In this document: in pieces, positions 14,830-51,555 of the stretch
How the letters are laid out: each line of letters starts with the position of its first letter
How positions within the stretch are numbered: position 1 is the stretch's first letter
NCBI GenBank assembly: GCA_964016885.1
Contig: OZ024740.1
Span: 373,426,001-373,490,000, forward strand
DNA length: 64,000 bases
Source: Eledone cirrhosa
Taxonomy: Eukaryota
Reading direction: 5' to 3'
Made by a program: the position numbers and the translations under genes
The notes under the pieces: model-generated
What the model saw: the letters and a program-made list of their open reading frames with translations, nothing else
Database searches by the model: none
Told to the model about the DNA's origin: nothing

Positions 14830-15346
14830 ATAAGTATACGTACATACATATATGTATACAGACGTACAGTAGTATGTATATACATACATGTACACATTTT
14901 CATTCTACTATGAGTGAGAAATGAAATTTCAATTTCATTTATTCCATTTATCGTTTTGGGTACGCCCGGCCGACTAACTCACTCGATATGCAAATTAGGC
15001 TACTCAGCCGTTAATATGCATAAGGCAAGTACATACTTTCAAACGTTCAATCGATTGACAGGAAGGTATACGGTGCTGGTGACAGCTAAAAAGCTAGAAA
15101 CTAGTTCATCGTTCCTTTGTCAGTGTTGAACAAAAGGGCAACGATGGTTGCCGATCACTGTCAGGCTAATAATTCGGGATGTTTGTTTACAAACAAACCG
15201 AGAATATATATATGTGTGTGAATGTATGTATGTAAATATATACTGCTGTACGGCTGTATACATATATGTATGTATGTATACATACTTATATTTAAGTATC
15301 ATCCGTACTAAGAATGAGAGATGAAAATTCAATTTCAATTTTTCCA
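14830..15346 (+). mobile_element. Retrozyme-like unit Rz-A (400-nt period) with 5'-inverted piece; hammerhead at 15071-15111
   Basis: TACTA.GA.TGAGA.ATGAAA recurs at 14906 and 15306. 14830-14880 is an inverted copy of about 15235-15290. Motif: CGGTG-CTGGTGA-cAGCTaaaaAGCTa-GAAACTAGTT-CATCG. Confidence 0.8.
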
Positions 15347-15384
15347 TATATATATATATATATATATATATATATATATATATA

Positions 15385-15790
15385 ATAGAAAGTGAGGTTT
15401 TTTTACAAAATGAAAAATAACCGAGGTGTCCTACACGAGTGAAAGTATAAAGAAAAAGATGTGAAATCGAAAATGCAACGGGAGTCTTATTTTTTTTTTA
15501 AATATATATATTTATTTGGTTCCTTTACCGGTTTCGCAGTTCTTCTGCTTTTCAAAAGATGAGTTGAGATGGAGGGTCTGTGGTTTTTCTCACATCTGAT
15601 TGGTCTCTGAATGTTACTTGTCTTATATGTAAAGAGTGGCTCGAAATGCCAGGTTTTTCGAGAAGTAATTTGATTGGTTTGTCAATAATTATAATAAATT
15701 TCGCGCCAGTTCGCGTTACAGTAGTTCTTCAAATAAGAGAGGGGGGGTTGTCACAGGTTGTTGTTTCATATATATTTGTTTGAAAGTTAT
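15385..15790 (-). mobile_element. P1 pLTR copy; U3-A8 hammerhead at 15522-15558
   Basis: Aligns with 4415-4845. Confidence 0.8.
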
Positions 15791-15944
15791 AGAAATTGAT
15801 TAGTAGATGAATGAATAAAAATAGGTCTCTGTCTGTCCGTCTGACAGCTGCCAGTTTCTTTCTTTCATTCTCTCTTTCTGTTCTCTCTCCTTTTCCACAC
15901 ACACACACACACACTCATATATATATATATATATATATATATAT

Positions 15945-47960: not shown

Positions 47961-48235
47961 AGATATATATATATATATATATATATATATATATATATAT
48001 ATATCAACTAGAAATTGATTTATCTAAAATAGACACTTGAAACAATCACAGGGGATAATTCGTAAAGTTTGTAACCACACACAGTGGATAGGCGCATGTC
48101 TCGGACATGACCCCTTAATTTAATTTTGTATATATATATATATATATATATATATATATATATATATATATATATATATATATATATATATATATTAATT
48201 TAAGTAAATATATTTAAGTCGTTTGGAAGCCTCGA

Positions 48236-50360
48236 CAATGCAATACTAATTTATTAAAATAACAGATTAAAGTTTAAGCAAAGAATCGCAGCTTTCACCC
48301 TTAACGGGATCTTCTCAAACTAAAAAAAATCAATCTGTGAACGCAGAAGTAAATATTTCGGAAAACGTTGCAACCGAAGGAAGACAGGTAGACGATACTT
48401 TGGTTCGTGGAAACGTTCCCTGGCAAAGAGCGGAAACAAACGAAGATAATGCGTCATTATTTGGACCGGTGAAACCAGTTACACGCAAAGACAAAACCAC
48501 GTTTATGTTATAACTGAAGTCGTAGACTCAAATTCTATTTAGGAAACCGAATGATTCTCGGCCTCAGAGATAAGAATATTGTAAAATTACAGAGGTAATT
48601 AAAATCAACAAAAATTAAATATATACATGCACGCATCCATATACGAACATACATATGAATATGCGAAAACACCCGCCATGGGTATGTAAATGCAAGCACA
48701 AACACACACAAAAGAAACGCACGCACAGACATAACCCACACAACGCCTGTACACGCACACATACGAACGTATACACCAAAAACACATAAAAATATATATA
48801 TACAAATATTTATATATATATATATATGTGTGTGTGTGTGCTTGTATACATATAATTATATAAACGTCTATAAATATACACACATAAATACGTATATAAC
48901 GCGCGCACACACATGCCTACATGTAAATACACATATGTTCGGTAAATCACGTAAACCAAAACACAAAGTACACATATACACACAGCCTACATACGTACGA
49001 ACCTGCATACACACACAGACGCAAAGCTCTCGTATACACATGACCATATGCACATGTACCAGTATATATAATATATAAGCCAATATATAGAATATACATA
49101 CAAGCAAATATACGTACGAGAAAGTATACGTACCTTCAAAAACATAGAGGTAATATATACTTAACTATACAAATGAGTAATGGTATAAACATAACATATA
49201 CTTAGCTACCACATCAAGACGTAAAATGTCAGCGTATAGTTCGTACTATCCGTTAGGGTATAACGTGGGGCTGTAATACAGGAAAGTTTTGTGCAATGTA
49301 TGTTTACAAGCCGAAATTGCGTCAGATTTTTTGTTTAAGATGTGGTCTTTGGTGTAGAGTATTTCCAGGGCCTCAGCGGCACAGAGGTCACGTGGTCTTT
49401 TATTTCCGTTATACGATCTAGACCTAGCTAGGATCTCCCAGTGTAACTTATATTGGGTGTGGTTGTCTATTAGACTCCAGATATAAGCTGAAAGTGACGT
49501 CATATTCCTTCTTAAAGTGTTGAGAAAAGAATGGATATGCATGTAATGATGCTGCTTCAATCTATTGGCGGTTAACCCTATGTAGGCCCCACGGACGTGG
49601 GTGTTTCAACTTTACATTTGTAGACAAGGTTACTAGAGAGGCATTATCCCGGAGAGGGGGCAGTCAACCCTATTCCTACAATTACAGTTAGAACTAGATA
49701 CAGGGTTGCATGTGTACATACGGCTAGGTAATTTAGCTAAATTTGAAGCTGTGTTGTCGTAGAGTAAGACATTTGAATGGTATTTCTATTAAAAATGTTA
49801 CTATATTTATGTGCTGGGAGGAAATGATTCACAATAAGGGAGAGAAAGATCTTAGCTAATAGTGTGGCCATGTCCATATTATATGGTCGGTTATACTATA
49901 TAATACGTCGGGATCTATTTGTCCTAAGTTTATTCTCATACTCTGTATATTCTACCTTATAGACAAATCCACTCCGAGCAAGAGCTTCATTGTAATATGT
50001 GGAATGGTCGTTGACAATATGCTCGTTTGTAGATAGACAGGAAAGCCTCAAAGAAACGTTTCTTACCAGGTTTTTGGTTATGCTGGCAGGGTGATTAGAA
50101 TGCTTACTTATGTAATTAAGCGTATCATTCGGCTTTCTATACAGTAGAATATTAGTCTACGACTTCATTTATACCATAGACGTGGTTTTGTCTTGGTGTG
50201 TAATTGTTTTTCACCGCTCCAAATATTGACGTATTATCAACGTTTTTTGAAATATTTACTTCTCCGTTCACAGATTGATTTTTTTTTAGTTTCAGAAGAT
50301 CCCGTTAAGGGTTAACGCATCAATTCTTTGCTTAAACTTTAATCTGTTATTTTAATAAAT
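48236..50360 (-). mobile_element. Neptune-type PLE 3' half with 5'-inverted pLTR at 50150-50360
   Basis: Minus strand: SNCNCRNRVDCP..CLSSNLVYKC..AYIGLTANRLKQHHY..TSLSAYIWSL..YKLHWEIL. 50150-50360 is the reverse complement of about 48250-48528 with a deletion. Confidence 0.85.
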
Positions 50361-51159
50361 ATTTGCTCTACGGTTCTTATATATTTGATATATATTTATC
50401 CTTATCGAGCCCTCTTTGGATTTTAGTCTTCAAATTTATTATTAGTACTATATATATATATATATATATATATTTATATACAGAGAGACAATATGCATCT
50501 CACTCCAACGGCGTCCGAATGAATCGTTAGTGATATATACAGAATCAGTAAGGTAAGCTCCCAGAAAAATATAATATAATTCTTATAAATTATCTTTATA
50601 AAAAATTGTCTCCTATGAGACAGTATTTATATAGGTATATAAAAAGCTAACTGGCCTCTGCATAAAAACTCCTCTTGCTAGAAATAGCAGACAATTCGCC
50701 AACGTATCACACCTTGCCGTATATGAAAGGAGAGTTCACACTGGCAATAGAGTCCATGAAAATATCATGTTTGAAGAAATAGCAAATGAAATAACACGGT
50801 GAAGTTGAGCATATTTACAAACGATCAGAATTTAGCTTCATGTAAAAAAAGTAACAACAATAAATGGATATGATTCGTAATCTATTATATGGGTTATTAA
50901 GTACAATTCGATATAGTAAATCCATTTGAAGAGGGGCCTAAGTTAAAAATACAATAAGGAATGTCAACGATATAGCATCGAAGGACTGCATATAACATAA
51001 AGACATGCCTCCTCTTGTCATAGAATATAATGCTTTTGATTATAAAGCTGTAGTGCCTATGATTCATAATGCTTGATTGGAGTTGATACATATATATATA
51101 TATATATTATTATTAGTACTATATATATATATATATATATATATATATATATATATATA

Positions 51160-51555
51160 TTGTTTTTATCGTCTCCGCTGAACCGGTGCGTACTCACACT
51201 CTATGCAAATTAGTCTGCCCACTACTAATTTTCATAGAAAAAGCATATAACGATATGTGCTTTTACAATTCTCCAGAAGGGCCGGTAGATAGGTAAATAT
51301 TGCTGATGAGTTGTAACAACAACGAAACTAGTTCAATATTCCTTGTCTGGCTTTCTGGAGAATAGAGGGAAGGTGTTCCCCCGAAAACCAGTATGACTCT
51401 AAAAACCGGTTTGTCTGTGTGTTTACATACAGAATAGCTGGGTTGCTCACAGTAAAGCAGCCAGTGAAAGACTTGTTACACCTACATATGTATACGTGTG
51501 TGTATTCATATACACACTAGTATTTCAGTATGCATATGTAGATGTACATTTTTAA
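51160..51555 (+). mobile_element. Divergent Rz-A relative
   Basis: Same motif order as Rz-A: TTTATCGT, ACTCAC, ATGCAAATTAG, hammerhead, GTTTACA, TA/TG-rich tail. Confidence 0.7.
51296..51340 (+). ncRNA. Minimal type-I hammerhead, intact
   Basis: AATATTG-CTGATGA-GTTGT-aaca-ACAAC-GAAAC-TA-GTT-CAATATT. Confidence 0.9.

Follow-up and report, generated by a model that had tools for sequence, protein, structure and literature searches.

The closest described relatives of the repeat analysed here are the metazoan retrozymes without long terminal repeats (non-LTR retrozymes; Cervera & de la Pena 2020, PMC7229834). The likeness extends to a non-coding, low-GC (36–37%) tandem unit, a single type I hammerhead, copy lengths from monomers to long multimers, a structured predicted circle and the presence of Penelope-like elements (PLEs) in the same genome. 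Known units measure 350–390 bp in mussel and 330/350 bp in axolotl (PMC7229834). Frog non-LTR retrozymes, presented as PLE derivatives (Li, Clavereau, Pollet, bioRxiv 10.64898/2026.07.22.740005), belong to the same class, have the same proposed helper and span a size range (51–972 bp) that covers the unit here. We examined a 64,000-nt stretch of the 3.0-Gb Eledone cirrhosa assembly (G000:C1:373,426,001–373,490,000; hereafter the window), which is 33% GC and rich in (TA)n, together with related loci elsewhere in the genome. Its repeat has a non-coding tandem unit of 429–484 nt (GC 0.36–0.37), against 170–400 nt in PMC7229834, with a type I hammerhead motif, and it fits the known animal non-LTR retrozymes by every feature testable in sequence. 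We read it as a non-LTR retrozyme with PLE-like ends in (TA)n, likely copied in trans by a Penelope reverse transcriptase (RT)-endonuclease, and probably round a circular unit-length RNA. Circular RNAs have been shown for the coral, mussel and axolotl retrozymes (PMC7229834).

One colinear repeat family occupies all seven places listed in a preliminary description of the window (14830, 28130, 30695, 32465, 42780, 47752 and 51160). The two copies said there to exceed one unit do so, with periods of 400 nt (14912/15312) in the copy at 14830, which has an internal deletion of ~30 nt, and 472 nt (30986/31458) in that at 30695. These two represent subfamilies A1 and A2, respectively, while the copies at 28130 and 32465 belong to A3 and that at 51160 to B; A1 and A2 are 85% identical and A and B 70–71%. 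The hammerhead motif with GAAACTAGT, described as fixed, is present in five of the seven copies (15076, 28204, 31153, 32539 and 51303) but missing from two 3' fragments (42780–43086 and 47749–47960), and it is intact only at 51303. The other four have a damaged core (CTGGTGA at 15076, CTGACTC at 32539) or one stem I mismatch each (28204 and 31153). The stem I and II changes reported with pairing retained are real and do keep pairing, but they are differences between subfamilies A1, A2, A3 and B. The copies are laid out as follows, 'inner' and 'outer' being the two 3' sites described below.

14826–14897, minus strand: A1 insertion, short inverted arm that stops at the inner 3' site within (TA)n.
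14898–15347, plus strand: A1 direct arm, comprising the tail of the previous unit, the junction at 14949/14950 and then one unit to the outer 3' site (period 400).
15070–15112, plus strand: A1 hammerhead motif with damaged core CTGGTGA, predicted cut 15106/15107 (GUU).
28129–28505, plus strand: A3 copy, 5'-truncated (unit position ~44 to the outer end); hammerhead at 28198–28240 with a stem I mismatch, predicted cut 28234/28235.
30694–30839, minus strand: A2 insertion, inverted arm with its end at the inner site.
30840–31495, plus strand: A2 direct arm of 1.4 units (period 472) with an outer end; hammerhead at 31147–31189 with one stem I mismatch, predicted cut 31183/31184.
32468–32821, plus strand: A3 copy, 5'-truncated, with an internal deletion; hammerhead at 32533–32575 with broken core CTGACTC.
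42778–42835, minus strand: remnant of a decayed A-type insertion, an inverted piece of tail with the outer end, read by eye.
42851–43086, plus strand: A-type 3' fragment (unit ~232–380, inner end) without hammerhead.
47749–47960, plus strand: A-type 3' fragment (unit ~220 to the outer end) without hammerhead.
51158–51562, plus strand: young B copy, 99% identical to its own family, with 10 nt of the previous unit, the junction at 51167/51168 and an inner-site end.
51297–51339, plus strand: intact type I hammerhead motif with stem I AATATTG/CAATATT, stem II GTTGT/ACAAC, loop III CTAG and predicted cut 51333/51334 (GUU).

The motif runs in the order stem I (6 bp), CUGAYGA, stem II, GAAA, CUAG, UH, which is that of type I; plant LTR retrozymes differ in carrying a type III hammerhead in their LTRs, whereas here stem I is the open stem. 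Stem III is a single A-U pair topped by a palindromic tetraloop, a form that works as a dimer (PMC4209133, PMC7229834) and resembles axolotl HHR_Amex1; newt satellite 2 is likewise a tandem repeat with a dimer-type hammerhead (PMC7229834, PMC2220036). Stem I is fully paired in all eight subfamily representatives. Stem II varies in sequence (AGCU/AGCU, GUUGU/ACAAC and GAUGU/ACAUC); B types have five pairs and A types four pairs stacked on a mismatch, C.A or U.U, the U.U of A2 and A3 recalling that at the stem II base of axolotl HHR_Amex2. The cleavage triplet is GUU in A1 and most B, GUA in A2 and A3, and GUC in two B variants. Of the 29 named pairs (stem I with its extension, stem II and a long-range stem closing on the tail) scored over 11 aligned sequences, 13 changed on both sides, and 94.5% of cells were paired compared with 34–44% when the partners were slid; as the structure was drawn from the same alignment and the rows come from about four lineages, this is support and not a test of significance. 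Folded as circles, four natural units took the same branched shape across A1, A2 and B (z of -8 to -10 against 30 dinucleotide shuffles), with AT-rich palindromes contributing to these scores. Minimum-free-energy folds of the 50-nt hammerheads were not significant (z of +0.1 to -2.2) and are unused as evidence, and an Rfam scan of the window returned no match at gathering scores, leaving motif and covariation as the basis of the hammerhead call. On the basis of core, stems I and II and covariation, each unit is assigned a type I hammerhead motif.

Exact matches to the core pattern number 38,401 across the genome, compared with none for the reversed control, so the motif is not a product of chance; our sample comprised ~130 loci out of these ~38,000 cores. 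Young copies are 99–100% identical and dispersed over many contigs, and the unit end joins the unit start directly both in dimers and in arrays of at least 30 units. The joint also appears in contigs from three of four sequencing runs of unrecorded kind, with full cover in runs coded as three organisms, a signal in which a circle and tandem DNA look the same. The preliminary claim that the element lacks RT or endonuclease coding agrees with our data: in four natural arrays the longest ATG frame is 20–97 aa, and none of the sampled copies runs into an RT frame. PLE protein matches lay within the locus in 7 of 84 loci, and the two inspected were separate insertions split by (TA)n. In the sampled loci no body common to the copies was found upstream or downstream of the unit, and the mapped loci contained no LTR–interior–LTR layout, no search having been made for primer-binding sites or polypurine tracts.

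These data bear on whether the repeat could simply be a coding PLE's ordinary terminal repeat (pLTR), represented by truncated copies. It has the same layout as the pLTRs of this genome, namely a hammerhead followed by two 3' ends; retrozymes are reported to derive from pLTRs, making shared ancestry likely (bioRxiv 2026.07.22.740005); and the sampled fraction of the cores is small. Against this, unit end meets unit start directly in many loci, copies have no flanking body in common and no flanking RT plus GIY-YIG frame was met. In further searches, a variant hammerhead pair spaced 4.2 kb apart lay inside a tandem array and not around a PLE, and among 63 variant ACTAGT-loop motifs the 20 fetched were retrozyme mutants, one more tandem array and isolated motifs, the last without neighbouring PLE matches for four queries. 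Extension of the unit, named in the preliminary description as the step that might lead into an RT-encoding open reading frame, leads back into the unit itself in the sampled arrays. We therefore consider the pLTR explanation largely refuted and very improbable, and the proposed assignment as a candidate retrozyme stands, its natural head-to-tail arrays closing the unit on itself.

Evidence on mobilization comes from the insertion ends. Among 205 arms not cut by a locus edge, 168 ended at one of two defined 3' sites, 86 at the inner site and 82 at the outer site (the unit end), with 37 ending elsewhere. The two sites lie 50–70 nt apart, and the inner one falls at unit position about 377–380 in A, about 425–429 in A2 and about 395–400 in B. 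Relative to the cut site they are about 220 and 270 nt downstream (3') in A and about 230 and 300 nt in B, and none of 209 arms in the cut-site comparison ended within 10 nt of the cut. Predicted folds place the inner end in the loop of a small hairpin (A1 and B) and the outer end just past an AT-rich hairpin; copies end in (TA)n. We found 62 head-to-head junctions, of which 51 were retained after setting aside 5 at a locus edge and removing 6 overlap duplicates by hand (L003, L012, L040, L043, L050 and L073). Of these insertions, 34 paired one inner with one outer end, 1 had two inner ends, none had two outer ends and 16 had an end elsewhere. Thus, 34 of the 35 with both ends at defined sites follow a one-of-each rule, compared with an expected half (p about 1e-9), and six further insertions, read across adjoining stretches or fetched later, do the same.

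This insertion anatomy of a retrozyme, with two fixed 3' ends and a one-sided tail, appears to be new here. The parts of PMC7229834 covered describe no head-to-head insertions, fixed pairs of 3' ends, one-sided tails or (TA)n targets for retrozymes, neither 'tail' nor 'inversion' appears in the text of bioRxiv 10.64898/2026.07.22.740005, and the listings of open literature searched contained no report of a tail/inversion footprint for retrozymes, or of this family.

The same footprint is found in the coding PLEs of this genome. PLE identity was assigned by eye from RT and GIY-YIG motifs and from layout, Pfam offering no family for these frames. Two coding families, with open frames of 785–786 aa and about 1,200 aa, each have two 3' ends in (TA)n. 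Their inverted insertions carry one end of each kind in 8 of 9 cases for one family and 2 of 2 for the other, and their tails measure about 45–60 nt and, in the 785-aa family, 142 nt. A PLE layout with an inverted arm and a tail on one end was described by Craig (2021), and one PLE RT has been shown to start at two internal sites bounding the tail, a property called unique to PLEs (Frangieh 2024, PMC11167929). More broadly, endonuclease-bearing (EN+) PLEs (Craig 2021; Frangieh 2024; Cervera & de la Pena 2014) resemble the element: they too have partial tandems, an inverted 5'-truncated arm, a one-end tail, microsatellite targets and, 5' of the sites where the RT starts, a dimer-type hammerhead. 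They differ in having an open reading frame and a cited tail of 30–40 bp, whereas the retrozyme has no such frame, a tail of 50–70 nt and arrays of tens of units. Taken together, the footprint common to retrozyme and coding PLEs and the published tail signature make it very likely that a PLE helper mobilizes the element. The preliminary description had also suggested a PLE RT; the paired ends put that suggestion on firmer evidence. Two PLE copies of one family lie in the window.

28721–30650, plus strand: decayed neighbouring PLE, a separate element and one candidate helper family (RT and GIY-YIG motifs by eye).
36500–38680, minus strand: second copy of the same PLE family.

Mobilization by another enzyme, either a LINE (long interspersed element) RT or a rolling-circle DNA transposase, is by comparison highly improbable. 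LINE fragments with zf-RVT are present in the window, and 5' inversions occur with LINEs too, but the end listings contain no poly(A) ends, and the two internal start sites and one-sided tail, described as PLE-unique (PMC11167929), match the PLEs of this genome.

Several other PLE and hammerhead traces were seen. GIY-YIG fragments at 2082–2633, 20125–20652 and 40268–40966 of the window represent at least three more PLE families, the 20125 family being that with open 785-aa frames and the 142-nt tail. Further hammerhead-like motifs were noted by eye at 14580, 42346, 43330–43440 and 12817 (minus strand); the 43330 type is a PLE terminal repeat, one having been seen behind a GIY-YIG frame at locus L074. 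Motifs of the form CTGATGAAG...GAAACTAGTC that lack retrozyme flanks and diverge from one another are scattered over further loci (L167–L170, L178, L181 and similar; 63 matches compared with 3 in the control) and are possibly relics of an old family.

If the helper is a PLE, the next question is what it copies. A pile-up of 5' ends at the cut site was considered and rejected (5 of 209 arms, p 0.41). Arms run through the cut site and the unit junction, extending from under one to about 18 units; 102 of 209 are longer than one unit and 43 include at least two cut sites, although selection of loci with hammerhead-containing queries biases these lengths. The lack of a 5' pile-up and the arms spanning multiple cut sites indicate a template that was either uncut or re-joined.

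The youngest lineage, within B, carries three A>G changes in a 6-nt stretch that set it apart from its closest sampled relative, and this marker gave 69 matches at 7 places, in insertions of about 26, 20, 11, 9, at least 6, 2 and 1 units. Among 63 cut-to-cut units, 58 were identical and 5 had indels only, with no substitutions. Its arms reach 17.6 units with PLE-type ends, and all four scorable inverted insertions have one inner and one outer end, while a fifth enters N. Since long substitution-free arrays occur at several loci, the youngest arrays were likely long from birth, which is what reverse transcription rolling round a circle would be expected to give. Li et al. (2026) propose for frogs that arrays grow locally by unequal crossover, which here would mean insertions of one or two units later expanded as satellite DNA. 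The older arrays, with shared variants and higher-order periods, and an array of at least 34 units with one variant recurring nine units apart, are consistent with such growth. The substitution-free arrays of about 9, 11, 20 and 26 units are not, as they stand at separate loci, in both inverted arms and with insertion-type ends. Crossing-over thus likely accounts for later array change and not for birth, for which we consider it very improbable.

Two older B arrays (L113/L128/L114, about 31 units, and L182/L183, at least 34 units) show higher-order periods, and seven of the nine variants shared in the former fall in the 55 nt that follow the cut site. At L129 (G000:C5:62.05 Mb), one arm alternates 467- and 480-nt units exactly over seven units, which would fit a dimeric template or DNA-level dimer duplication. 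The triple A>G is carried by L130 (G000:C1:30.83 Mb) and six other loci and may derive from a captured A-to-I edit; it is one case, recognized post hoc. General A-to-I editing of the template was rejected, private sense A>G versus T>C changes numbering 6 versus 13 in young B, 25 versus 27 in A1 and 10 versus 7 in A3.

A variant of single origin that fills whole arrays calls for a monomer-to-multimer step, for which a circle is the simplest source; on this sequence-level argument the template is probably circular RNA. A linear template used by the same PLE helper, whether an uncut read-through transcript of an array or cut monomers chained by template jumps, with the ribozyme dispensable for insertion, is appreciably less likely. 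It would explain every end signature equally well, long arrays exist as possible sources, and the 467/480 alternation fits a heterogeneous multimer; the GUU triplet, minimal stem III and stem II mismatches moreover suggest weak cutting. Yet paired changes have kept the hammerhead stems across 30% divergence, the variant with three A>G changes, which arose in one unit, fills whole arrays of as many as 26 units that are otherwise free of substitutions, and the assembly holds no longer source for the longest arm seen. The junction of a circle ligated at the cut site would be identical to the genomic tandem sequence, so divergent RT–PCR alone cannot prove circularity.

Several observations weigh against the reading of a PLE copying a circle, as does the query bias in arm length. 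Identical units at all seven young loci equally fit a homogeneous linear multimer or repeated template jumps, and, as one young arm enters N, a longer source array may exist. Shared variants and higher-order periods in older arrays (a 30-mer with 9 of 15 variants shared; the 467/480 alternation) indicate that DNA-level change also shapes these. Assembly polishing could homogenize units, yet older arrays in the same assembly keep their differences. In the one PLE assayed in vitro, that of the anole, hammerhead mutants still inserted and the template was mainly uncut RNA, and its cut site coincided with no RNA-seq read end (PMC11167929). The anole ribozyme needed the PLE protein. Eight of nine frog retrozyme dimers were uncleaved in vitro (bioRxiv 2026.07.22.740005). 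Finally, comparison of the unit with the terminal repeats of two PLE families showed no homology (scores 66–78 versus 61–66 for shuffles, s.d. about 8). The earlier proposals of PLE helpers, in PMC7229834 and the frog study, rest on co-occurrence or pLTR homology, the frog study using both; here the insertion footprint was found instead.

Considering both sides, we propose the following cycle round a circular template. Tandem copies would be transcribed, and two hammerheads pairing via the palindromic loop ACUAGU would excise a monomer, which, by analogy with other retrozymes, may be closed by a host ligase. As the DNA footprint shows, copying then begins at (TA)n targets from either of the two internal sites downstream of the cut, and both target ends are extended, one per site, to give the head-to-head arms with their one-sided tail. 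Arms continue across the cut site and the unit junction for anything from under one to about 18 units; long arms would arise as the RT circles the RNA, and older arrays would later drift or change length by DNA recombination. More tentatively, and with slightly less than even confidence, we suggest that a currently active lineage preserves the traces of a Penelope RT rolling round a circular RNA. One event would then produce a palindromic array of as many as 26 identical units (12 kb), with priming of each arm at one of the two PLE start sites; ribozyme satellites would be born full-length instead of growing by crossing-over, and the three clustered A-to-G changes of the founder may be a captured RNA edit.

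The sequence ATGCAAAT, which we take to be the motif known as the octamer, lies at 14988–14995 and 51203–51210 of the window; in A1, A2 and B it precedes the core by 88–100 nt. It is destroyed in the youngest B lineage, which still spreads. It was absent from 17 of 17 distinct 300-nt regions listed upstream of host U1/U2 genes, U6 not being covered, so a promoter of small nuclear RNA (snRNA) type, as reported for newt satellite 2, is not supported for this element and was rejected. The host U1/U2 upstream regions (L198–L223) share TCAGT near -55 and ACCTCCC near -255.

A second, unrelated-looking hammerhead family occupies 51870–52090, 52530–52760 (minus strand) and 52930–53230 of the window (loci L189–L197). 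It has stem I ACCGTC/GACGGT, loop III TGCA and cores at 53068 (plus strand) and 52733 (minus strand), ends in (TA)n and is terminally redundant with a period near 340 nt; in L189 the octamer lies 99 nt upstream of the core. With 2,324 first-look candidates, it is probably another retrozyme. Elsewhere in the window, a ~185-nt repeat with a GAGTTCAAATCC box, presumably a tRNA-derived short interspersed element, has five copies (17120–17305, 45600–45743, 46088–46269, 56152–56336 and 62969–63149), and a LINE 3' fragment with zf-RVT lies at 27349–28146 (minus strand). Near-identical matches every ~59–60 kb at G000:C1:143.3–143.8 Mb suggest a large tandem segmental repeat.

At 450 nt per core, the ~38,000 cores would amount to ~17 Mb, or 0.6% of the genome, a sizeable share. 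Both the enzyme that moves animal retrozymes and the circle as its template are still hypotheses in the parts of PMC7229834 and bioRxiv 2026.07.22.740005 covered, and here the physical footprint of a retrozyme family points to PLEs and gives two start sites to the base. Together with the long open PLE frames (785–786 and about 1,200 aa) and the published in vitro PLE assay (PMC11167929), this footprint makes the helper and template questions directly testable. If the proposed rolling reverse transcription is true, it would provide a one-step origin for satellite arrays.

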